This document shows positions 2,774 through 50,477 of a DNA stretch of 64,000 nt, one piece after another. The position numbers and the translations under genes were made by a program. The notes beneath the pieces were generated by a model that worked only from the letters and a program-made list of their open reading frames with translations, was not told the origin of the DNA and made no database searches. The stretch's first letter is position 1, and each line of letters starts with the position of its first letter. The DNA is from an uncultured Clostridia bacterium (lineage in GTDB: Bacteria > Bacillota > Clostridia > TANB77 > CAG-508): contig CAKPQH010000003.1 in assembly GCA_934178475.1 (NCBI GenBank), positions 50,315 through 114,314 on the forward strand, read 5' to 3'.

Positions 2774-3761
2774 TTCTGAAAAATATATAGATAGATGTCT
2801 TAATAGTATAATAAATCAAACATATAAAAATATAGAGATAATTATAATAGATGATGGGTCAAGTGATAGATCATATGGAATTTGTGAAAAAAAATCTAAG
2901 AAAGATAAAAGAATAAAGTTAATAAAACAAGCAAATAAAGGTGTATCTTTTGCTAGAAATTTAGGTATTGAAGAATCTAAAGGAGATTTTATTGTTTTTG
3001 TAGATAGTGATGATTATTTAGAAGATACAGCTATAGAAGTTTGTAATAATAATATAAAAGATAATGATTTGTTAATATGTGAAATAGCATATATTGTTAA
3101 TGAGAAAAAAATATATATTCCATGTAAATTAAATGGAGAATATACAACAAAGACATTGTTAGAATCTCTAAATAATAGAAAAAACATAAAATTAGCTGAA
3201 AGAATTAATTCAGTATGTGGTAAAGTTTATAGGGCAGATATTATAAAGTTAAATCAAATTAGATTTGATGAATGTATTTCTATTGGAGAAGATTTACTTT
3301 TTAATATTTATTATTTGGAAAAAATAAAAAAAATTAAATGGATTGATTATGCAATTTATAATTATTACAAGAATAATATATATTCTTGTACAAATGATTA
3401 TAAAAAGAATAAGTTTATGGAATTAAATGAAGTTAGTAATAGTTATGAGAGATTGTTAGATACATTAGGTGATAAGAAATTATTTGATATTGTAAAATAT
3501 ATAAGAGTTAAAAATATATATTCTTGTATATTAGACTTGTTTCATGAAAAATGTGATTTAAAATTTAAAGAAAAGTTGAAGTATATAAAAAATATTAAAA
3601 ATATAACTAAGAGAAAAGTGGTAATAGGTAAAGGATTTGGATTTTTTTGTGGATCTATAATATATAGTTTTTTACCGGAATTTTTGTTACTTCTTATATG
3701 TAAAATTATATTTTTTTATAGAAGTTTTAGGTTGAATATTAGAAAAGGAGACATAGGTTGA
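2742..3761 (+). CDS. GT2-family glycosyltransferase
   Basis: N-terminal motifs match GT-A/GT2 proteins: VVIPVFNSEKYIDRCLNSIINQTY, IIIIDDGSSD and VDSDD (DXD). Confidence 0.75.
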   Translation: MRFSVVIPVFNSEKYIDRCLNSIINQTYKNIEIIIIDDGSSDRSYGICEKKSKKDKRIKLIKQANKGVSFARNLGIEESKGDFIVFVDSDDYLEDTAIEVCNNNIKDNDLLICEIAYIVNEKKIYIPCKLNGEYTTKTLLESLNNRKNIKLAERINSVCGKVYRADIIKLNQIRFDECISIGEDLLFNIYYLEKIKKIKWIDYAIYNYYKNNIYSCTNDYKKNKFMELNEVSNSYERLLDTLGDKKLFDIVKYIRVKNIYSCILDLFHEKCDLKFKEKLKYIKNIKNITKRKVVIGKGFGFFCGSIIYSFLPEFLLLLICKIIFFYRSFRLNIRKGDIG

Positions 3762-38006: not shown

Positions 38007-38681
38007 ATGCTTAGAACTACGAAATCTATGAAAGAAAAATATGAACAGATACAAAGCTGTTTATTTGATATAATACCTGAAAAATGGGAAGAAATATATT
38101 TATATACATCTGTAATCGAAATTAATAAAAGATTATCTGGAGAATTATATTTTTATTATCTTCCCAAAGGGTTTATAAGAAAAAAATTAATTAATGTCTA
38201 TGAAGTACCATCTAGATTTAATATTGATGAAGAACAATATATGAAATTAGTAAAAAAATTATTTGATGCTATAAAAAGTTTGAGGCAAGATTTTGTTGAT
38301 ACTGAACAGAAAATATGGACTAATTTAACTATTGTTGTTGCTAATTGTAGGTTTAAAGTAGAATATGGTTATGAACCAATAAAACTTACAGAAGAAGATA
38401 CAAATAGAAGACATATAATATGGAAATATAAGTATCTAGGGTTAGGTGGAGAAATAAAAGAAGAAAGAAAAATATTAGATAGGTATTTTTCAAAGGAAAT
38501 GATAACGGAACCCAAGAAAGAAGTTTATGAGGCAGGTTTATATTTAAAAAAAGTAAATAATATAATAGATTTTGATAGAGAACAAAAAGAGGAATTTGTT
38601 CGCGATGACGGCATTGAAAAAACAGAAAACAATAAAGAAGAAAATGTAAAAAGGAAAAGAAATCAAATTCTAAATGATTGA
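38007..38681 (+). CDS. YezG/EsaG (DUF600)-like immunity-protein-family member with a C-terminal extension
   Basis: The N-terminal pattern IPEKWEEIYLYTSV...GELYFYY closely resembles the IPxEWEKVY...GEVFFxY signature I recall for DUF600/YezG. It starts 3 nt after gpmI. Confidence 0.4.
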   Translation: MLRTTKSMKEKYEQIQSCLFDIIPEKWEEIYLYTSVIEINKRLSGELYFYYLPKGFIRKKLINVYEVPSRFNIDEEQYMKLVKKLFDAIKSLRQDFVDTEQKIWTNLTIVVANCRFKVEYGYEPIKLTEEDTNRRHIIWKYKYLGLGGEIKEERKILDRYFSKEMITEPKKEVYEAGLYLKKVNNIIDFDREQKEEFVRDDGIEKTENNKEENVKRKRNQILND

Positions 38682-38744
38682 TATTTAAATAAGAGAAAGA
38701 CTTATTTTTATATAAAATACGTAAAACTGAAAGGAGCAATTAAA

Positions 38745-39437
38745 ATGATTTATTCAAAGGAATTAGAAGGAATGTGTTGTGTAGCAAAAGGAGTTGACCA
38801 TGGACCAGCACCAATTCCAGAAGAAGGAAAATGGGTAAAAGCTAAAGAAATAAAAGATATTTCTGGATTAACACATGGTATAGGATGGTGTGCACCACAA
38901 CAAGGTGGATGTAAACTAACATTAAATGTAAAGGAAGGAATTATACAAGAAGCTTTAATTGAGACTGTAGGATGTTCAGGTATGACACATTCAGCAGCTA
39001 TGGCAGGAGAAATTTTAACAGGAAAAACTATATTAGAAGCTTTAAATACAGATTTAGTTTGTGATGCTATAAATACTGCTATGAGAGAATTATTCTTACA
39101 AATAGTATATGGTAGAACTCAAACAGCTTTCTCAGAAGGAGGTCTTCCAGTAGGTGCTGGACTTGAAGATTTAGGAAAAGGACATACAAGTCAAGTTGGT
39201 ACTATTTATTCAAGTACTTTAAAAGGACCAAGATATTTAAATCTTGCTGAAGGATACATAGTAGAATTAGGATTAGACAAGGATGATCAAATAATTGGAT
39301 ATAAATATGTTCATATTGGAAAAATGATGGATAGTATCAAAAAAGGAATTGATCCAATGGAAGCTATAGAAAAAGCTTCTGGAACATATGGAAGATTTGA
39401 CGAAGCAGTTAAGAAAATAGATCCAAGAAAAGAATAG
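38745..39437 (+). CDS. IscU/NifU-N-like-domain protein, partner of the GGGtGRT protein
   Basis: GCKLTLNV...ALIETVGCSGMTHSAAMAGEILTGKTILEA resembles the IscU scaffold core. Confidence 0.4.
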   Translation: MIYSKELEGMCCVAKGVDHGPAPIPEEGKWVKAKEIKDISGLTHGIGWCAPQQGGCKLTLNVKEGIIQEALIETVGCSGMTHSAAMAGEILTGKTILEALNTDLVCDAINTAMRELFLQIVYGRTQTAFSEGGLPVGAGLEDLGKGHTSQVGTIYSSTLKGPRYLNLAEGYIVELGLDKDDQIIGYKYVHIGKMMDSIKKGIDPMEAIEKASGTYGRFDEAVKKIDPRKE

Positions 39438-39496
39438 AATTAATAATTTAGATATCACATGGTTAGTACACCATACAAATTTAAGGAGGAATAAAA

Positions 39497-40498
39497 ATGG
39501 CAGTAACATTTGAAAGTTATGAAAGAAGAATAGACCAAATAAAACCAGTTATGGAAAAGTATGGAATTAAAGATTTTGAAGAAGCATTAAAAATATGTAC
39601 AGATAAAGGTTTTAATCCATATGAAATAGTAAAAGGAATACAACCAATATGTTTTGAAAATGCATGTTGGGCATATACATTAGGAGCAGCTATTGCTATA
39701 AAGAAAGGTTGCACAAAAGCTCATGAAGCAGCAAAAGCTTTAGGAGAAGGATTACAAGCATTCTGTATACCAGGTTCTGTTGCAGATGACAGAAAAGTTG
39801 GATTAGGACATGGAAATTTAGCATCAATGCTTTTATCAGAAGATACAAAATGTTTTGCATTTTTAGCAGGACATGAAAGTTTTGCAGCAGCAGAAGGAGC
39901 AATTGGTATAGCTAAATCTGCTAATAAAGTAAGAAAAACACCTTTAAGAGTTATCTTAAACGGATTAGGAAAAGATGCAGCACAAGTAATTTCAAGAATA
40001 AATGGATTTACATATGTAAAAACTGATTTTGATTTCTATACAGGAAAAGTAAATGTAGTAGAGGAAATACCATATTCAGATGGTGAAAGATCAAAAGTTA
40101 GATGTTATGGTGCAAATGATGTTAGAGAAGGAGTAGCTATAATGTGGCTAGAAGATGTAGATGTATCTATTACAGGTAACTCTACAAACCCAACAAGATT
40201 CCAACATCCAGTTGCAGGTACATATAAGAAAGAAAGAATTGAAGCAGGAAAGAAATATTTCTCAGTTGCCTCAGGTGGAGGAACAGGAAGAACTTTACAT
40301 CCTGATAATATGGCAGCTGGACCAGCTTCTTATGGTATGACAGATACTATGGGTAGAATGCATTCAGATGCTCAATTTGCAGGAAGTTCATCAGTTCCAG
40401 CACACGTTGAAATGATGGGATTAATAGGAATGGGTAATAACCCAATGGTAGGCGCTTCAGTTGCAGTTGCTGTTGCAGTAGAAGAAGCTATGAAATAA
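39497..40498 (+). CDS. GGGtGRT-family protein, conserved and of unknown function
   Basis: It contains the literal signature SVASGGGTGRTLHPDN. Confidence 0.6.
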   Translation: MAVTFESYERRIDQIKPVMEKYGIKDFEEALKICTDKGFNPYEIVKGIQPICFENACWAYTLGAAIAIKKGCTKAHEAAKALGEGLQAFCIPGSVADDRKVGLGHGNLASMLLSEDTKCFAFLAGHESFAAAEGAIGIAKSANKVRKTPLRVILNGLGKDAAQVISRINGFTYVKTDFDFYTGKVNVVEEIPYSDGERSKVRCYGANDVREGVAIMWLEDVDVSITGNSTNPTRFQHPVAGTYKKERIEAGKKYFSVASGGGTGRTLHPDNMAAGPASYGMTDTMGRMHSDAQFAGSSSVPAHVEMMGLIGMGNNPMVGASVAVAVAVEEAMK

Positions 40499-40595: not shown

Positions 40596-41906
<1,311 letters not shown>

Positions 41907-41988
41907 TATAAAAAATAACTAATTTTAAGTATAAATTTCCTCTAATTGTAAATAATACAATTAAAAGTTGATAGGAGGAATTTATATT

Positions 41989-42789
41989 ATGAGAAGAGAT
42001 ATAAGAAGACAAAAAAGAATGGATAATACAGTTATTTTGAGTATTGTGTGTGCAATATTAATTTTAGTTGGAATAGTAACATATGTTATTAAAAATTATT
42101 TAGAAAAAGAAAATAATTCAAGCTTGAATTTGCAAGAGGATCTTGCAATATTAGAAAATGCTGATATAAAAGATACAAGTACTGAATATGGTAAAACTGT
42201 TGAAGAATCTAAAGAAGAGATTATAGATGGTGAAACTTTAAAAGAAGAAAAAGATTCTACTAATACTAGTAAAGCAGAAAATACAACTTCTACTAGTAAG
42301 AAAGCAGAAACTAAAAAAGAAGAAAATAGTACAAATGTTGTAACTACTAAACCTGTTCAAGAAGAAAAGAAAAAAGAATTAACATTCAAAGCTCCAGTAA
42401 AAGGTGAGATTTTAAGAGAATATGCAGTTGAGAATTTAGTATATTCTGAAACTTTAAAAGAATGGATAACACATAATGGTATTGATATAAAGGCAGATAA
42501 GACAACTGTTGTAACAGCAGCAGCACCTGGTAAAGTATATGCAATAAAAAATGACCCTAGATATGGCCTAACTGTTATTATTGAACATGATGATGGATTT
42601 AAAACAGTATATTCAAATCTTTTAACAGCTGAATTTGTGGTTGAAGGTGAGAATGTAGAAGAAGGTCAAACAATCGGTACAGTTGGTAGCTCAGGTGCTT
42701 TTGAAATAAGTGATGATTACCATTTACATTTTGAGATGTTAAAAGATGATGCATATGTAAATCCAACAACATATATTAATTTTGATTAG
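41989..42789 (+). CDS. M23/LytM-family metallopeptidase-domain membrane protein (N-terminal TM, Lys/Glu/Thr-rich linker). Possibly SpoIIQ-like
   Basis: C-terminal LytM domain (HNGIDI, GKVYAI, HLHFEM). The SpoIIQ idea is a guess based on architecture only. Confidence 0.6.
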   Translation: MRRDIRRQKRMDNTVILSIVCAILILVGIVTYVIKNYLEKENNSSLNLQEDLAILENADIKDTSTEYGKTVEESKEEIIDGETLKEEKDSTNTSKAENTTSTSKKAETKKEENSTNVVTTKPVQEEKKKELTFKAPVKGEILREYAVENLVYSETLKEWITHNGIDIKADKTTVVTAAAPGKVYAIKNDPRYGLTVIIEHDDGFKTVYSNLLTAEFVVEGENVEEGQTIGTVGSSGAFEISDDYHLHFEMLKDDAYVNPTTYINFD

Positions 42790-43048
42790 TATTATTGAAA
42801 TGTAATGAAATTGTAAAATAAATGTAAAAGTAATGTTGTTGACAAAAGGTAAAAGAATATGTAAAAATAGATGTAGAAAGAAAAAAAGTAAAAAATGCAA
42901 AAAGTAGAAAATACGTATCTCCTGACGCTCTAAGAGAAAAAACAATAATTTATTAAATGAAGCAAATAGAACAAATATAAGAAATAAGGCTAGCTTATTG
43001 TTAAAATGGCAATAAGTTTTTAGTCTTATTAAGGAGGATAAGATAGAA

Positions 43049-44327
43049 ATGAAAAAAGTATTAAAAAATGTAAAAGGTATAACATTAATTGCTTTAGTAA
43101 TTACTATAATCGTGTTATTAATATTAGCAGGTATATCAATAAGTATGATATCAAGTCAAGATGGAATATTAACGAAGGCAAAAGATGCAAAGTCTCTAAT
43201 GAAAATAAAAACAGAAGAAGAATTGGTACAATTAGCAGTACATAATGCTTATATAGAAGAAGAAGGAGATTTTGAAAAAGAAACAGCAGAAGAAGAAATA
43301 AAAAAGAGTTTGGTCGAAAACGGTTTAAGTATTACAGGAGATAATTTTAAAAAAGTAAATGAAAAATGGTATTATGTAAGCAGTTTAGGAAAAAACTATG
43401 AAATTAATAAAGATGCAAATGTAAGTATAGTAGAAGAATTACCTAAAATTGATGGTTTTATTGATGGAATATTATATTATAACGGAGAACCTTTTTCTGG
43501 TGACTGGTGGTATAGTCCGGAAGACAAAATTCAAAATCCGCCAAGTATATTCCTTATAAATGGAAAATATGCAAAATATCAAGAAGGTAAGATAGATGAG
43601 GGGTGGAGCATTGATAATTCATATTATATGTTTGGAGAACTTTACACTGGTATTGTAAGACCTACTGGAGGTTGGTACTATGGAAGATTAGTTAATGGCG
43701 AAATGGAAGTTCCAGCTCGGACCTAACGGAGGAGCTTATGATGCTAATTCTTTGATTGTAAATAATGGTAAGAGATTTGATGGAATTGCATATATGGCTG
43801 GTTATAGAAGTTCTATGTATTCTGAAGTAATAGATGGATTATTGCAAAAAACATTATATTCTTGTTTGCTTCCAACAACAGAAATAGAAGTTATAGAAGA
43901 AGATGAAAAAGGAAGAAAGAAACGTAGAAAGAAAAAAATAAAGGACATAAAAGAGGGAGACAAGGTATTATCAGTAAATCCAGAAACGGGAAAACTTGAA
44001 GAAGATGTAGTAATATATGCAGACGGAGATGAAAATAAAAAATATAATAAATTTGAAATATGGACATTTAATGATGGAACAGAAGTAAAAACACTTCATA
44101 AACATAGATTTTATAATATAGAAAGACAAGATTTTGTGTATATACAAGAATGGAATATAGGAGAACATGGATATAAAGAGAATGGAGAAATTATAGAATT
44201 AATAAGACATAAAGTGGTAAATGAGGAAGTTCAACATTGCACGATATTTACAGAAAAATGGAATAATTATTTTGCTAATGGAGTATTGACAGGAAATAGA
44301 AATTCTATAAAAATGAAAATTTTATAA
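43049..44327 (+). pseudogene. Cassette copy 1: pilin-like-leader protein with WYY cell-wall-binding-like repeats and a C-terminal Hint-like domain. It is interrupted by a +1 frameshift near 43695-43726
   Basis: Two overlapping ORFs lie in different frames (43049-43726 and 43695-44327). The N-terminal 35 aa are near-identical to 45117-46907. The second ORF carries a Hint block A (CLLPTTEIEV). The intein F/G-like end is degenerate (NGVLTGN instead of VHN). Confidence 0.5.
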
Positions 44328-44343
44328 TATATGAAAGTATAAA

Positions 44344-44387
44344 AAAGAACTCTAATTGGATAAAGCATCTAATAAGAGTTCTTTTTT
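44344..44387 (+). terminator. Rho-independent terminator after cassette copy 1
   Basis: aagaactct...agagttctt plus T6. Confidence 0.6.
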
Positions 44388-44395
44388 AGGATTTT

Positions 44396-44519
44396 ATGCA
44401 GATTTGTTTTCACTTTTATTTAGTTTTTCATATTCTTTACATTTAATTTTATAATCCATTTGCATACATAAATATTTGTAATAACTATATGCTTGCTCAT
44501 ATCTGTTATTATTAAACAT
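44396..44519 (-). pseudogene. Truncated copy (C-terminal 41 aa) of the small convergent ORF found intact at 46992-47210
   Basis: The reverse-complement translation MFNNNRYEQAYSYYKYLCMQMDYKIKCKEYEKLNKSENKSA is about 90% identical to the C-terminus of the 72-aa protein. Confidence 0.45.
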
Positions 44520-44720
44520 GATGATGAATTTAAAACAGTATATTCAAATCTTTTAACAGCTGAATTTGTGATTGAAGGTGAGAATATAGAAGAAGGTCAA
44601 ACAATTGGTACAGTTGGTAGTTCAGGTGCTTTTAAGATAAGTGATGATTATCATTTACATTTTGAGATGTTAAAGGATGATGCATATGTAAATCCAACAA
44701 CATATATTAATTTTGATTAG
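44493..44720 (+). pseudogene. Duplicated 3' fragment (last about 66 codons) of the M23 peptidase gene
   Basis: About 94% aa identity to residues 200-273 of the 41989-42789 product. There is no plausible start and the track 'start' is a TTG. Confidence 0.75.
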
Positions 44721-44876
44721 TATTATTGAAATGTAATGAAATTGTAATATAAATGTAATATAAAAATAAAATAGAATATTATTGACAAAACGTATAAGAG
44801 TATGTAGAATTATATGTGATAAGAAAAGAGGTAAAAAATGCAAAAGATAGAAAAACATGTATCTCTTGACGCTCTA

Positions 44877-44904
44877 AGAGAGAGAGAGAGAGAGAGAGAG
44901 AGAG
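44877..44904. repeat. (AG)14 dinucleotide microsatellite in the 5' leader of cassette copy 2
   Basis: Read directly. The homologous position in copy 1 (about 42928-42940) reads agagaaaaaacaa. Confidence 0.95.
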
Positions 44905-45116
44905 CAACAATTTAATAAATAAAATAAATAGAATAAAGATAAATATAAGGAATAAGACTAGCTTATTGTCAAAATGGCAATAGGTTTATAGTTTTATTTT
45001 TGCGTTTTTTTGCCAAGAATGGAAGGGAGGAAAAATATATAGAATGGAAGAATAATAATCATAGTAGAATGAATAATAAAAATAATAAAGTAAAGGAATA
45101 AAAAGCTAAGGAGGAT

Positions 45117-46907
45117 ATGATGAAAATGAAGACGGGATTAAAAAATGTAAAAGGTATAACATTAATTGCATTAGTAATTACAATAATTGTGTTATTAATA
45201 TTAGCAGGTGTATCAATAAGTATGATATCAAGTCAGGATGGAATATTAAAACAAGCAGCAAAGGCAAAACTTATGCAAGAGATAGCTCAAGTAGAGGAGC
45301 TACTCAACTTAAAAGTATTAGAAATATATTCAGCAAATTCGGACAATTTAGACAATGTAACAAATGGAACAATAAAAACAGCAGTAATGACAGAGATAGG
45401 TAAAATGGGATATGAGACAGAAGAGAAAACTACAACACAAGCAACAGTAAAAGGACTATTAATTCAAGATTCAACAGGAGCAAATATTGAAAATGTAAAT
45501 TTAATACAAAATGGAGAGCAGATTATAACAATCAAATTAGATACAGAAGGAAATACAAATTCAAAAACATATGTAATAATACAAAGTAAGAAATTTGAAA
45601 TTACGATAAATGACGGAACAGTAAAAATATCTAGAGAAGAGTACATAGATCAATCAGAAGACCAAGAAGCATATCAAATAAAATTAACACCACCAACAAC
45701 GGGTACTAAAATATATGTTGAGAATAATGAAATAACAGAGGAGACTAATATAGCAGATAATACAAATATAAAAGTCAAGGCAGGAGACAGCACAGGAACA
45801 TTTAATTTTAACGTACAAGAGTCCAAAAGTGGAACTTCAAGAGAGGTAAGTGTTAATGTAGAAGCTAATCAAGCATATGCTACGAAACTAACTATAGGAG
45901 TAAAAGATAATGCAGAAGCGACAATTACACCAGAAGGGACATTACAATTACAGGCAACGATAGAGCCACTAAGTTCGACAGACACAGTAACTTGGAAAGT
46001 TGAATCAGGAGATGGAACAATAAGTGATACAGGATTGTTAACAGCAAATAGTACTGCTACAGCAGGAAGTAAGATAAAAGTTATAGCAAAATGTGTAAGA
46101 GCAGATAATACAACATCAAATGTTCAAGGAACAATAGAAATAATGGTACAAGAAGAACTAATAGATATGAGTTCTTTTTATATTCAGCAGTCTAGTGAAA
46201 CTGCCCCATTATCTTATACAATTTCAGGTGACAGCCATGGATATGATATATATTATGCTCGAATGGGTATTCCGGTTGGTAGTTTAGATGAACTTATTGA
46301 ACATGAGAAAATTTATATGCCAGGAACTCAATTTACTGGGGGAAATAGTCATGAATGGTTATATGTATGGCTTTCGAAAGATGGTACAAATGTAAAATCT
46401 CAAATAAAAGTATTTGCAACTACGGTGTGGATGTGCTTTACAGAAGATACGTTGATAGAAACATTAAATGGTAGCCAAAAGATAAAAGATATTAAAATAG
46501 GTGAATTGGTATATAGCTACAATGAAAAAAGTAATAAAGTTGAGTTGAAAAAAGTTACAAATACATATATTCATAGAATAGAAGCTAATCTTTGTAGAAT
46601 AAAGGTGGGAAATGACGTTATAGATAGTACAACAAATCATCCATATTTTGTTAAAGATAAGGGATGGGTACTAGCTAGTAAATTAGAGAAAGGCGATAAT
46701 CTTATGGATGTAGGAGGTCAATCACTAATTGTTCAAGAAAATTCAATTATTAATAATGCTATAGTAGATGTATATAACTTTGAAGTTGAAGGGAATCATA
46801 ATTATTTTGTTGGCAAATCTTGTGTATTAGTGCATAATGCACCAGATGTTATTAACTGTTCATATGTAGGAACGAAAGAATTTGGAGATATTGTAACATT
46901 TGATTAA
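45117..46907 (+). CDS. Cassette copy 2: pilin-like N-terminal leader/anchor, central Ig-like (Big_2-type) domain region, and a C-terminal Hint/intein-like (BIL-like) autoprocessing domain
   Basis: The N-terminus is MKTGLKNVKGITLIALVITIIVLLILAGVSI. A Big_2-like segment reads TITPEGTLQLQATIEPLSSTDTVTWKVESGDGTISDTGLLTANSTATAGSKIKVIAKC. Intein blocks are A CFTEDTLIETLNG, B TTNHPYF, and F/G VYNFEVEGNHNYFVGKSCVLVHNA. A 22-aa tail follows. Confidence 0.65.
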   Translation: MMKMKTGLKNVKGITLIALVITIIVLLILAGVSISMISSQDGILKQAAKAKLMQEIAQVEELLNLKVLEIYSANSDNLDNVTNGTIKTAVMTEIGKMGYETEEKTTTQATVKGLLIQDSTGANIENVNLIQNGEQIITIKLDTEGNTNSKTYVIIQSKKFEITINDGTVKISREEYIDQSEDQEAYQIKLTPPTTGTKIYVENNEITEETNIADNTNIKVKAGDSTGTFNFNVQESKSGTSREVSVNVEANQAYATKLTIGVKDNAEATITPEGTLQLQATIEPLSSTDTVTWKVESGDGTISDTGLLTANSTATAGSKIKVIAKCVRADNTTSNVQGTIEIMVQEELIDMSSFYIQQSSETAPLSYTISGDSHGYDIYYARMGIPVGSLDELIEHEKIYMPGTQFTGGNSHEWLYVWLSKDGTNVKSQIKVFATTVWMCFTEDTLIETLNGSQKIKDIKIGELVYSYNEKSNKVELKKVTNTYIHRIEANLCRIKVGNDVIDSTTNHPYFVKDKGWVLASKLEKGDNLMDVGGQSLIVQENSIINNAIVDVYNFEVEGNHNYFVGKSCVLVHNAPDVINCSYVGTKEFGDIVTFD

Positions 46908-46991
46908 AACTGGTAACCAATGTATTGACAAGAAGAGAAAAATTCTAAACTAGATAAGATAGCTTAGAAATTTTTTCTCTTTTTTTATTAT

Positions 46992-47210
46992 TTATGCAGA
47001 CTTATTTTCATTTTTATTCAATTTTTCATATTCTTTACATTTAATTTTATAATCCATTTGCATACATAAATATTTGTAATAACTATATGCTTGCTCATAT
47101 TGCATTATTGGGTTAAACATAGGGTCTTTATATATATCGTTCATATCAAAATTATTTGGTATATTACCATAAGGTGAATATCCTTGAAATTCATTAAAAT
47201 CTTTTTCCAT
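46992..47210 (-). CDS. Small Tyr/Met/Asn-rich protein (72 aa) convergent with cassette copy 2. Function unknown
   Basis: It has an RBS aaggattgattt upstream on the minus strand. A truncated paralog sits after cassette copy 1. Confidence 0.4.
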   Translation of the reverse strand: MEKDFNEFQGYSPYGNIPNNFDMNDIYKDPMFNPIMQYEQAYSYYKYLCMQMDYKIKCKEYEKLNKNENKSA

Positions 47211-47262
47211 AAAATCAATCCTTTCTTTTATTAAATAATATTAAAAAACAAATAAATTAGAA

Positions 47263-48309
47263 CTATAAATTTAAATTAAATATTGGAAAAATGCTAATAA
47301 AAATAAATGTATAAAGAGCTGCTATTATACCATGAAGAGTTTTACCTATTATATATGGTTTTATGGATAAATCTGTTTTAGAGATTACGCTTAAAACTTG
47401 AAGCAAAACAGATATTCCACCTAAACCTAAAAGAAAAGCGGTTATGATAATATTTATTGATATTGCTTTTATTTGTATATTTGCTACTTGTGAAATACCA
47501 TTTGTTACTTCTATAATACCAGTTATAATTGGAATTATAAATTTTGTTGGTATATGTAATATATTAAATATAGGAGAAAGCAAAGCTGAAAAGAAAATTA
47601 AAATTTTGCTTTTATTTAATATGGAAACTATAACAGAAAATAAAACTATGAATCCTCCTATCATAAGTATAGTAGATATTGAATTATATATACATTCTCC
47701 TAATACTCTACCTAGATTTGATAAAGATATTGAAGAAGAGTTGTATATATTTTTTTTGTTAGGACTTTGTTTGGGATAAGATTTTTTCCAGAATCTAAAT
47801 AAGATTCCGACAGTAAAACTTGCGAGTATATGAGTTAATAAAAGTAAAAATCCTATTTGTGTACTTCCAAATAAACTTATTCCACAAGTACCAACTATAA
47901 ATAAAGGCCCTGAATTATTAGAAAAACTTAATATTCTTTCGCACTCTTCTTTAGAGAGAATATTTTGCTTTCTGAAATTAGTTGCTATTTTTGCGCCTAT
48001 AGGATATCCACTAATCCAACCCATTATAATTGCAAAGCTACCTACACCTTTTATATTAAATAGAGGTTTCATAAATCTATTGAAAATTCTGCCTAAAATA
48101 TAAGGTATGTTAGTTTTTGAAAGAAGTTCAGTTGCAATAAAGAAGGGGAATAATGATGGAATTACAGAATTTGCCCACAGTTTTAATCCATTTTTTGCAG
48201 CAAGCATATTGCTTGATGAAAATATAAGCAAAGATAATGTAAATAGTAAGAATAGTAATGGTAATATATAGCTTTTTAATTTGAATATGAATATATGTGT
48301 TTTTTTCAT
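47263..48309 (-). CDS. ylbJ: Sporulation integral membrane protein YlbJ-like (nucleoside-recognition/Gate domain). The start is at the internal Met (MKKTHIF)
   Basis: About 10 TM helices with the duplicated Gate-domain pattern. An RBS AGAGG precedes the internal ATG. The assignment is by family resemblance. Confidence 0.5.
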   Translation of the reverse strand: MKKTHIFIFKLKSYILPLLFLLFTLSLLIFSSSNMLAAKNGLKLWANSVIPSLFPFFIATELLSKTNIPYILGRIFNRFMKPLFNIKGVGSFAIIMGWISGYPIGAKIATNFRKQNILSKEECERILSFSNNSGPLFIVGTCGISLFGSTQIGFLLLLTHILASFTVGILFRFWKKSYPKQSPNKKNIYNSSSISLSNLGRVLGECIYNSISTILMIGGFIVLFSVIVSILNKSKILIFFSALLSPIFNILHIPTKFIIPIITGIIEVTNGISQVANIQIKAISINIIITAFLLGLGGISVLLQVLSVISKTDLSIKPYIIGKTLHGIIAALYTFIFISIFPIFNLNL

Positions 48310-48359
48310 AAAAAAATACCTCTTAAGACAAGTGTATGTTTTAAGAGATATTTTTATGA

Positions 48360-50477
48360 TTAATGTTGCAAGCATCCATCAGGAAGAGTTCCTGTTAAAA
48401 AGTATTCTGAATATGTATGTTTACATTTTGAATTAGCTATTTTACCACTATCTGAACATATATTTACTTTAGTTACACCCTTTGGAATAGTAAATGTTGC
48501 ATTTGATAATCCTTTATGGATTTTACTCATTGTTCCTGACCATATAAGACCAGCCGGATTTTTTCCACCAAACTCAATGCTTTCATTTAAATCAAATCCA
48601 TACCAAGTTGCTGCTGTATAATATGGGGTAAAACCACAAAGCCATCTATCAAAATTATCATTTGTTGTTCCTGTTTTTGCTGCAACGTCTATTCCTGAAA
48701 TTGAACAGTAAGTAGCAGTTCCTCTTGAACCTTTAACAGGTTGGGTTAAAAGCTCTTGCAGAATATATGCTACAGATTCAGAAAAAACTCGTCTTGATTT
48801 TTGTTTCGAACGCATATATGTTTTTCCAGAAGATGTTACAACACTTTTATAGAATGTTGGTTCTATATAAGTACCATTGTTTGCTATTGTGGCATATGCT
48901 GCTGAAACTTCTAAAGGTGACATACCTTTGTCTAATCCGCCAAGTGCTAAAGCAAGTGAATTATCGTTTTTTGTTAAAGTTGTTATTCCCATTTTTTTCA
49001 AATATTTAATGGAAGTTTTAGGTGTTACTTTTTCCATAATTGTAACAAATGGAATGTTTTGTGATGTTTCAACTGCTTGCCTTAGTGTTATAGAACCTCT
49101 GTAGTCATCATAATCTATAGGAGAATATCCTTCTTCTGAACCATCATCGAAGGTGGTGGCAACATCCTCAAACACAGTTGAATTTGTTACAAGTTTTTCT
49201 GAAATGGCTGGTACTAAAACAGCAATTGGTTTTACTGATGATCCTGTTTGTCTTGTCATTTGAGTTGCTCTATTAAATGAGCGAGATTCTGTTTTGGTAC
49301 CAATTCCACCAACTGATCCTACAACATATCCAGTAGAGTGGTCAATGATTACCATTGCTGTTTGAGCAGTTGCATGAGAATCTTTTTTTGAATAGATAAT
49401 ATATTTTTTGTTTTTTACTTCATTTTCTATTGCTTTTTGAATATCTGTATTTTGCGTGCTGTGTATTGTTAAACCTGCCATGTACAAATAATTTTCTGCA
49501 AAGGAAGTTGAAATATGTTTTTGACTAGAAATATCATTAATAAGTTCATTTAATAAAGCGTCTGCATGGTATGAATATATATTTGAACCAGATGAAGACA
49601 AATTCCCTTTTTTGAATTTTAGACCGGTATCAAGGTTTGAAATAGAGGTATTGTATTCATCATTAGAGATATAATTCAATTCAAGCATTTTATTTAAAAC
49701 TGTTTTTGTTCTTTTTAGTATTTTTTCTGAATTATCCTTTTCTGAAAATGGGGAATAGGAATTAGGAGATGTATTTATTCCTGCTATAAAAGCACATTCT
49801 TCTAAATTAAGTTCAGAAACCGATTTATTAAAATAATATTTTGCAGCATTTTCTATACCATATAAATTAGGACCAACATAAATGTGGTTTAGGTAGGAAA
49901 CTAAAATATCATCTTTATTCATTGTAGATTCAAGAGATAAGGCTAATGCCCATTCTTTAACTTTTCTTGATATATTTTTTGAATTATCACCTGTTAAATT
50001 TTTTACTAATTGTTGTGTTATTGTACTTCCACCAAAAGAAGATTTGCCAAAGCCTTTTACATAGTTCCAAATAGCACCAGAAGTTCTTTTTATATCAACT
50101 CCATGGTGAGAGTAAAACCTTTGATCTTCAATTGCAATATAAGCATTTTTAAGATTGTCTGGTATTGATGCAGATTCGATATAAGACGTAATTCTTCCGC
50201 TTCCCAAATTTGCTATATTATTACCATCAGTATCCAAAACAGAGGAAGAAGAGTGGTTAGAAATCATTTCTTTTGTCATTACATTAAAATTATGAATGTA
50301 TATTGCTAAATAAATACCATAGTAAATTATAGCCATTACAATAACAATAATAAAAAAAATAATAATTTTTGCTTTTAATGACATAGAAGTAGATTCTTCT
50401 AGTACTTCATCCGTGTTTTTTAGATTTTTATTTTTTTGATTTTGTTTAATATTATCATCTATTTTTTTTCTACTCAT
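48360..50477 (-). CDS. Class A penicillin-binding protein (GT51 transglycosylase plus transpeptidase)
   Basis: GT51 motif IEDQRFYSHHGVD. Transpeptidase motifs include SXXK (TGSSVKP), SXN and KTGT (AAKTGTT). Confidence 0.85.
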   Translation of the reverse strand: MSRKKIDDNIKQNQKNKNLKNTDEVLEESTSMSLKAKIIIFFIIVIVMAIIYYGIYLAIYIHNFNVMTKEMISNHSSSSVLDTDGNNIANLGSGRITSYIESASIPDNLKNAYIAIEDQRFYSHHGVDIKRTSGAIWNYVKGFGKSSFGGSTITQQLVKNLTGDNSKNISRKVKEWALALSLESTMNKDDILVSYLNHIYVGPNLYGIENAAKYYFNKSVSELNLEECAFIAGINTSPNSYSPFSEKDNSEKILKRTKTVLNKMLELNYISNDEYNTSISNLDTGLKFKKGNLSSSGSNIYSYHADALLNELINDISSQKHISTSFAENYLYMAGLTIHSTQNTDIQKAIENEVKNKKYIIYSKKDSHATAQTAMVIIDHSTGYVVGSVGGIGTKTESRSFNRATQMTRQTGSSVKPIAVLVPAISEKLVTNSTVFEDVATTFDDGSEEGYSPIDYDDYRGSITLRQAVETSQNIPFVTIMEKVTPKTSIKYLKKMGITTLTKNDNSLALALGGLDKGMSPLEVSAAYATIANNGTYIEPTFYKSVVTSSGKTYMRSKQKSRRVFSESVAYILQELLTQPVKGSRGTATYCSISGIDVAAKTGTTNDNFDRWLCGFTPYYTAATWYGFDLNESIEFGGKNPAGLIWSGTMSKIHKGLSNATFTIPKGVTKVNICSDSGKIANSKCKHTYSEYFLTGTLPDGCLQH

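Follow-up and report, generated by a model that had tools for sequence, protein, structure and literature searches.

A blunt junction between two gene relics in a tandem repeat at a strain-variable locus of an uncultured gut Clostridia bacterium

The locus and its two head-to-tail copies

We analysed a stretch of 64,000 nucleotides (the window) from an uncultured gut Clostridia lineage, in which a locus of the core chromosome lies between enolase, which stands with glycolysis genes, and two minus-strand genes, ylbJ and a class A PBP. Its features, in window coordinates, are the following.

40626-41906: enolase, upstream of the duplicated locus, with glycolysis genes
41989..42789, plus strand: full-length M23 peptidase gene, 266 aa (Pfam Peptidase_M23, 89.9 bits), parent of the M23 relic
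42572..44502, plus strand: repeat copy 1, 1,931 nt (M23 3' end, short leader, split gene, likely terminator, small-ORF 3' part)
42790..43048, plus strand: leader 1, short form, 259 nt (alignment with copy 2, L008, L010 and L011)
43049..43726, plus strand: ORF225, N-terminal half of a frameshift-split gene (membrane anchor and ectodomain)
43695..44327, plus strand: ORF210, C-terminal half of the split gene in the +1 frame, PT-HINT domain
44331..44397: 31-nt inverted repeat between converging genes, 81% complementary, 5-nt loop
44394..44502, minus strand: small-ORF relic, last 36 codons and stop (tblastn to residues 37-72, 94%; nucleotide repeat, 92%)
44502..44503: junction J1, blunt, small-ORF position 47100 to M23 position 42572 (three-way base comparison)
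44503..47100, plus strand: repeat copy 2, 2,598 nt
44503..44720, plus strand: M23 relic, last 71 codons and stop
44721..45125, plus strand: leader 2, long form, 405 nt
44782..44810, plus strand: sigma-70-like promoter match, the best in the region (TTGACA-17-TAGAAT, 11/12), a consensus match only
44878..44903, plus strand: (GA)13 microsatellite in leader 2
44948..45001, plus strand: terminator-like hairpin, then a T-run, inside leader 2 (fold -22.5 kcal/mol, z -4.3; terminator scan)
45126..46907, plus strand: intact 593-aa gene (N-terminal anchor, variable ectodomain, C-terminal PT-HINT domain ending in VLVHN, 22-aa tail)
46992..47210, minus strand: full-length small ORF, 72 aa, parent of the small-ORF relic

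The exact 266-aa M23 protein occurs on 22 metagenome contigs; this ATG-start form is the recorded one, and an exact protein look-up of the 273-aa form starting at TTG gave no match. The 593-aa gene, for which an alternative start at 45117 would give 596 aa, encodes a protein (P0001) present on 17 contigs. The 72-aa small ORF has no Pfam or NCBIfam family match. Together with ylbJ, a sporulation gene, it forms a pair that recurs, with 58-80% identity, in many Clostridia of the gut and rumen, and in relatives that lack the cassette it usually faces enolase directly. It is a neighbour and not a part of the cassette, and it is probably functional. The inverted repeat at 44331..44397 is a likely bidirectional terminator.

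The row of glycolytic genes upstream carries features of its own. Between the phosphoglycerate mutase gene and enolase, an insertion of three genes (38007-40498) encodes a YezG-like protein of an immunity-protein family, a 230-aa protein without assignment and a GGGtGRT-family protein. PADLOC returned no defence-system match for these three genes, the cassette proteins or the small ORF. Within enolase (41147-41372), 12 SNPs in 226 nt separate strain groups that are otherwise about 99.9% identical, a cluster that is likely an imported recombination tract.

Repeat search and self-BLAST of the region recover the three repeated blocks named in the first-pass annotation, and the repeats are real, far beyond chance. 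Positions 42569-42827 match 44500-44758 at 95% without gaps, and with gaps the match extends through the leader and the start of the coding region (42569-43315 against 44500-45288, self-BLAST); the 3' part of the small ORF at 44380-44502 matches 46978-47100 at 92%. Both copies carry, in the same order, the M23 3' end, the leader, the start of the anchor-coding sequence and the small-ORF 3' part. They are adjacent, head to tail, with no spacer, and the new join links the distal end of the unit (the equivalent of 47100) to its proximal start (the equivalent of 42572). The order of the repeats and this join bear out the proposal of a tandem duplication whose unit runs from inside M23 to inside the small ORF.

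The extents of the repeated pieces differ in part from those first given. The M23 3' end is indeed repeated, as 71 codons and the stop from 44503 and not as about 66 codons from 44493 to 44720; M23 homology proper (42572-42789 against 44503-44720) has 10 mismatches in 218 nt and five amino-acid changes. Likewise, the small-ORF 3' part is repeated with 10 of 123 sites differing in the window, and it ends at 44502, whereas a block of 44396-44519 had been described. The correspondence of a downstream leader at 44721-45116 with 42790-43048 holds, with four indels between the two leaders (12 nt, the (GA)n run, 6 nt and about 108 nt). At the anchor-coding start 18 of 144 sites differ between the copies. 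A 75-aa ORF reads across the junction, its first codons (44493-44502) being antisense small-ORF sequence, and the duplication explains two spurious metagenome gene calls, this 75-aa 'Peptidase_M23' and a 41-aa ORF. The M23 relic keeps HxH without the upstream HxxxD motif and thus cannot be an active peptidase. We regard both relics at J1, the last 36 codons of the small ORF and the last 71 of M23, which lie back to back, as non-functional.

A blunt and reproducible junction

J1 was compared base by base with both parents in a three-way comparison of the junction, the small ORF and M23. Up to 44502 every base is that of the small-ORF parent (up to 47100), and from 44503 every base but one is that of M23 (from 42572). 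Because base 44502 matches the small-ORF parent only and base 44503 matches M23 only, the join is blunt, with no base common to both parents at the break, and an in-register run of two or more bases common to both parents is absent from J1. The two fragments had been said to meet at 44500-44520 in a shared motif, ttaaacat versus ttgaacat; the switch in fact falls between 44502 and 44503, with the motif out of register. A duplication mediated by microhomology at this motif, through replication slippage or MMEJ-type joining, would fit the presence of the 8-mer near the break in both parents, one mismatch apart, as well as the occurrence of the small-ORF version in the junction, where it is created by A at 44514. 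However, the distance from the break to ttaaacat is 20 nt in the small-ORF parent but 17 nt in the junction, where the 11 intervening nt agree with M23 throughout and not with the small ORF, and A at 44514 belongs to a set of seven G<->A transitions specific to the relic. Furthermore, the best local alignment between the parental 50-nt windows around the break scores 7, which sits at the mean of the null (7.3 +/- 1.8); when window pairs are drawn at random from these two genes, 63% score at least as high. Given that the bases on either side of the switch match one parent each and that a second junction (J2, below) is likewise blunt, mediation by microhomology, as first proposed, is very unlikely.

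A question arises, could the duplication be a product of assembly? Among the loci fetched, 18 contain the exact J1 40-mer; they come from 12 independent gut metagenome samples assembled with MEGAHIT (k141) and SPAdes-type pipelines, and over 7.8 kb the strains that bear it match the window at 99.1-100% identity. The exact M23, small-ORF, 593-aa and ORF210 proteins are on many human-gut metagenome contigs, including Hadza samples and a Nepal sample. A single locus falsely expanded, or a chimeric contig, might be suspected given that all data are short-read metagenome contigs and that some contigs at the locus are unreliable (L046 with Ns, L047 with a foreign end, L055 with 1.9x coverage). Yet false expansion is expected to yield identical copies, whereas the copies here are 5-12% apart and hold different genes; the 40-mer recurs in contigs from at least two assemblers, and MEGAHIT contigs at k=141 require spanning reads. 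Because the exact junction is present in 12 independent samples and the copies have diverged, an assembly artefact is excluded for J1, the chance of false expansion or chimerism being negligible.

Short-read assemblies nonetheless break or collapse at this locus. The short contigs L050-L053 end at repeat edges, so that assemblers evidently struggle here. A candidate single-copy strain (L046), with full-length M23 directly before the 593-aa gene, was rejected: it is a scaffold with Ns, the switch between copies falls inside a 72-nt identical stretch (42745-42816), and the 'missing' loop is present as a separate contig of the same sample (L053). The pair may equally be an assembly-graph collapse through 42745-42816, and the scaffold jump is no evidence against the two-unit structure. 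Another arrangement, a 593-like gene behind rnhB with a paralogous leader (L055, 1-440), was set aside at 1.9x coverage with its switch inside the conserved anchor-coding repeat; it is possibly a real rearrangement through that repeat, or a misassembly or chimera. After position 3184, L047 runs into unrelated GC-rich DNA, and this end is chimeric. None of the strains among the related metagenome loci could be shown to hold just one copy of either gene, so that we infer the ancestral state. A contig scan of genomes with M23 returned only relatives at 45-70% with other synteny (greA, M23, ftsEX) and neither a species-level genome nor a single-copy reference.

The locus holds a second type of junction, observed directly in two samples. 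J2 fuses position 47256, 46 nt upstream of the small-ORF start, to M23 position 42532; it is blunt and is identical in L054 (MEGAHIT, sample ERZ27287000; 1-847) and L136 (a scaffold, sample ERZ28615947; 1-2247). Decay at J2 took its own course: the M23 relic there shows Y>D and D>V, and in L054 a nonsense codon interrupts the small-ORF copy. The M23-side breaks of J1 and J2 lie only 40 nt apart. The unit may have been duplicated at least twice, at J1 and at J2, or J1 may have arisen from a J2-type join. A descent of J1 from an older J2-type junction (47256 to 42532) through a 196-nt deletion across the join would explain the proximity of the M23 breaks. Both J1 breakpoints do fall inside the J2 relics (47100 < 47256 and 42572 > 42532), and two changes, 42596 G>A and 42720 C>T, are common to the J1 and J2 relics. 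But 42720T is also found in L011 and 42596A in some full-length M23 genes (P0125, P0129), and because both occur outside the relics they are not diagnostic; the remaining relic changes are each private to one junction type. We consider this descent improbable. Changes specific to the M23 relic are 42583A, 42640A, 42655A, 42703A, 42705G and 42744G.

How old is the duplication? It had been called recent on the strength of about 90% identity between the flanks, a reading we do not retain. The junction is found in strains from several cohorts, the relics carry many substitutions, and identity between copies varies from strain to strain through gene conversion or allele exchange. SNPs between J1-bearing strains cluster in leader 1 (42817-42898) and in the small ORF (47001-47085), where the sequence of one strain group is that of the other copy. 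Of 123 sites in the small-ORF repeats, 3 therefore differ in L001-type strains and 10 in the window. Conversion to the functional-gene type is nearly complete in the M23 relic of L043 (2 versus 8 mismatches), where the functional M23 carries one relic variant. We read inter-copy identity as reflecting conversion and allele exchange, not time; given the clustered SNPs and the conversion in L043, it is unusable as a clock at this locus.

The duplicated unit and its products

The duplicated unit reads as a complete expression unit, comprising a promoter, a leader with a terminator hairpin, an anchor and a variable ectodomain. Each copy has its own strong promoter-like site (in copy 1 at 42839-42868, from a promoter scan), leader hairpin (in copy 1 at 42980-43030), ribosome-binding site and anchor. 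Three pieces are missing from leader 1: the (GA)n run, a block of 12 nt and, between the hairpin and the ribosome-binding site, a stretch of about 108 nt. The long leader form of copy 2 is shared by the alleles L008, L010 and L011. In leader 2 the (GA)n run lies between the promoter-like site and the terminator-like hairpin. Its unit number is 9, 10, 11 or 13 among strains with 99-100% identity over the rest of the sequence (0-10 bases apart), and 10 in L011; its length may tune or switch expression. As at simple-sequence contingency loci, the length of a dinucleotide repeat varies (9-13 units) among near-identical strains; unlike at those loci, the repeat here is in an untranslated leader, between a promoter-like site and a hairpin. 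L010 and L011 have compensatory changes on both arms of the hairpin, which may be an attenuator specific to this gene family. An Rfam scan of 41000-48500 (E<=1) gave no relevant match, only a chance snoRNA match in enolase. No leader boxes were found upstream of anchor genes in more distant species, and the leader is therefore known only within this species group.

The two central genes had been described as unrelated, which is so for their middle parts only. Identity between their products is 71% over the first 68 residues and 85% over the first 48, and both products end in PT-HINT (78.6 bits for the 596-aa protein and 29.9 bits for ORF210; Pfam cutoff 27.7). The N-terminus in both genes reads KG followed by ITLIALVITIIVLLILAG, with Gly at -1, then a hydrophobic stretch of about 20 aa. 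The anchor consensus is MKxVLKNxKGITLIALVITIIVLLILAG..SSQDGIL (43049-43192 and 45126-45269, also in L011, L008, L017 and L136), with Ala and not Glu at position +5. Pfam N_methyl has no match among the window proteins, and in the relatives L011 and L017 its score of 16.7 bits stays below the cutoff (21.2); the TIGR-type prepilin model (TIGR02532) gave no match above threshold, and PRK10574 scored 17.8 bits versus 138. We describe this N-terminus as a prepilin-like anchor and not as a pilin. The same anchor heads proteins with unrelated ectodomains (GLUG repeats, HINT-ended proteins, unassigned domains), and thousands of unnamed metagenome proteins combine it with unrelated ectodomains.

In copy 1 the gene is split: ORF210 lies in the +1 frame relative to ORF225, with a 32-nt overlap (43695-43726). 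The conceptual fusion of the two is covered at 98-100% by intact homologues of 424-448 aa (P0164, P0165, P0167 and P0168), which align across the frameshift site; given these intact single proteins, ORF225 and ORF210 represent one split gene. The split is present in every strain seen. It may be a pseudogene or a programmed +1 frameshift, and the copy 1 gene is probably inactive.

PT-HINT (Pfam PF07591) resembles BIL domains in that the HINT fold ends non-conserved extracellular proteins; BIL domains sit in hypervariable regions of non-conserved bacterial proteins (review PMC7765530). The copy 2 HINT has the form C...VLVHN and, like A-type BIL domains, ends in His-Asn; copy 1 and the intact homologues have C...GN. 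Unlike PT-HINT polymorphic toxins, these proteins have no toxin domain after HINT, only 22 and 9 residues following it without a Pfam or NCBIfam match, and an N-terminus that is prepilin-like; they also have no immunity-like gene downstream, where the next gene is the convergent 72-aa ORF. Our literature search on PT-HINT together with pilin found nothing relevant. The 22-aa tail that follows VLVHN in the 593-aa protein (46839-46907) is APDVINCSYVGTKEFGDIVTFD, and P0027, P0029 and P0030 have a similar tail (CSYxGT..YG..F). This tail could be a released peptide.

In the population, the interval from M23 to the small ORF is occupied by other genes in strains whose flanks are 93-97% identical. 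In L011 a 657-aa GLUG-repeat protein stands in tandem with a 418-aa protein, and no relics separate the two; L008 holds a further GLUG protein and L017 a 420-aa protein. All of these have the same anchor, and M23 in the strains that carry such genes is at least 97% identical. The exchange of central genes that the first-pass annotation proposed is thus real in the population, L008 and L011 having other genes between near-identical flanks.

Origin of the repeat and its meaning

Two readings of the origin deserve weight, and of these we cautiously favour duplication in place by an illegitimate, blunt end-join followed by exchange. A segment of about 2 kb, holding the promoter, the 5' leader, the anchor, a variable ectodomain and the terminator together with the M23 3' end and the small-ORF 3' part, would have been duplicated head to tail, and the join of 47100 to 42572 would have left the two non-functional relics back to back. 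The units would then have diverged through homologous exchange with other alleles and gene conversion between copies, for which the conserved leader with the N-terminal module, the M23 relic and the small-ORF repeat could have served as three exchange anchors. Copy 1 would afterwards have lost function by frameshift and leader deletion. We infer that duplication came first and replacement later; as to the enzymology, joining of a Ku/LigD type or another RecA-independent break-join between sister chromosomes is possible.

The less probable of the two, though one to be taken seriously, is the capture of a foreign allele in a single step, with no prior duplication, by homology-facilitated illegitimate recombination, a mechanism already known (de Vries and Wackernagel 2002; Prudhomme et al. 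2002). DNA of a diverged strain (M23 3' end, long leader, 593-aa gene, small ORF and ylbJ) would have recombined by homology on its right side, in the small ORF and ylbJ, while its left end in M23 was joined illegitimately into the small ORF of the recipient. In natural transformation, a homologous anchor with an illegitimate end would yield this very product from two diverged alleles, and one event would account for both the different genes and the different leader forms. Leader 2 does resemble the L011-lineage leader more than leader 1, with the 12-nt block, the (GA)n and the 108-nt segment of L011, L008 and L010 that copy 1 lacks; three of the ten M23-relic differences are common to L011, and the 5-8% divergence of the repeats is similar to that between lineages (window versus L011, 93%). 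Against this, the M23 relic has 14 mismatches to L011 but only 10 to the resident M23, its differences are mostly G<->A transitions of its own, the pattern that decay in place would give, and the few small-ORF differences in L001-type strains (3/123) suggest copies that were originally near-identical. The donor lineage was not found among the loci compared. Illegitimate ends in this kind of recombination usually have a few bases of microhomology, unlike J1. Taking both sides together, we favour duplication in place over capture.

The event belongs to a known class, tandem segmental duplication by illegitimate joining, of which it is a new example. Spontaneous tandem segmental duplications that form by RecA-independent illegitimate joining are familiar from the classical work in Salmonella and E. 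coli (reviews, Reams and Roth). As there, we find a head-to-tail repeat, a new join of distal to proximal ends, truncated relics of the flanking genes, and repeats that become substrates for homologous recombination and conversion. Unlike in those cases, the duplication here is common to strains of several cohorts, its units hold different genes and the join has no microhomology. In the lpl cluster of Staphylococcus aureus, tandem lipoprotein-like paralogues have a highly conserved segment that acts as a recombination site and shuffles the variable parts between strains (Tsuru and Kobayashi 2008, PMC2568036). Both loci hold tandem surface-protein paralogues recombining at a conserved module, but whereas in lpl the module is the central coding region, here it is the 5' leader and the N-terminal anchor, and the array has been extended by illegitimate joins that carry unrelated pieces of flanking genes.

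As a scar, the junction is of a textbook type and leaves general views as they were. What it adds is local: in an uncultured human-gut Clostridia lineage it points to a surface-protein locus that is prone to recombination and variable between strains, and whose arrays grow by blunt illegitimate joins (J1, J2) and are then remodelled via allele exchange and gene conversion. The anchor-plus-HINT family and its leader, which are uncharacterised, are more intriguing than the junction and could repay study. A more speculative reading, which we hold to be doubtful, is that the junction is a by-product of a dedicated diversification locus. Its portable expression units would serve a large, unnamed surface-protein family of gut Clostridia, with a prepilin-like anchor, a swappable ectodomain and in many cases a HINT end that cleaves itself and bears a short conserved tail, under a family-specific leader (promoter, hypermutable (GA)n, terminator hairpin). 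Repeated rounds of duplication, capture and exchange of these units would serve to vary the cell surface or a released peptide. If this reading were true, the leader would be a new regulatory element.
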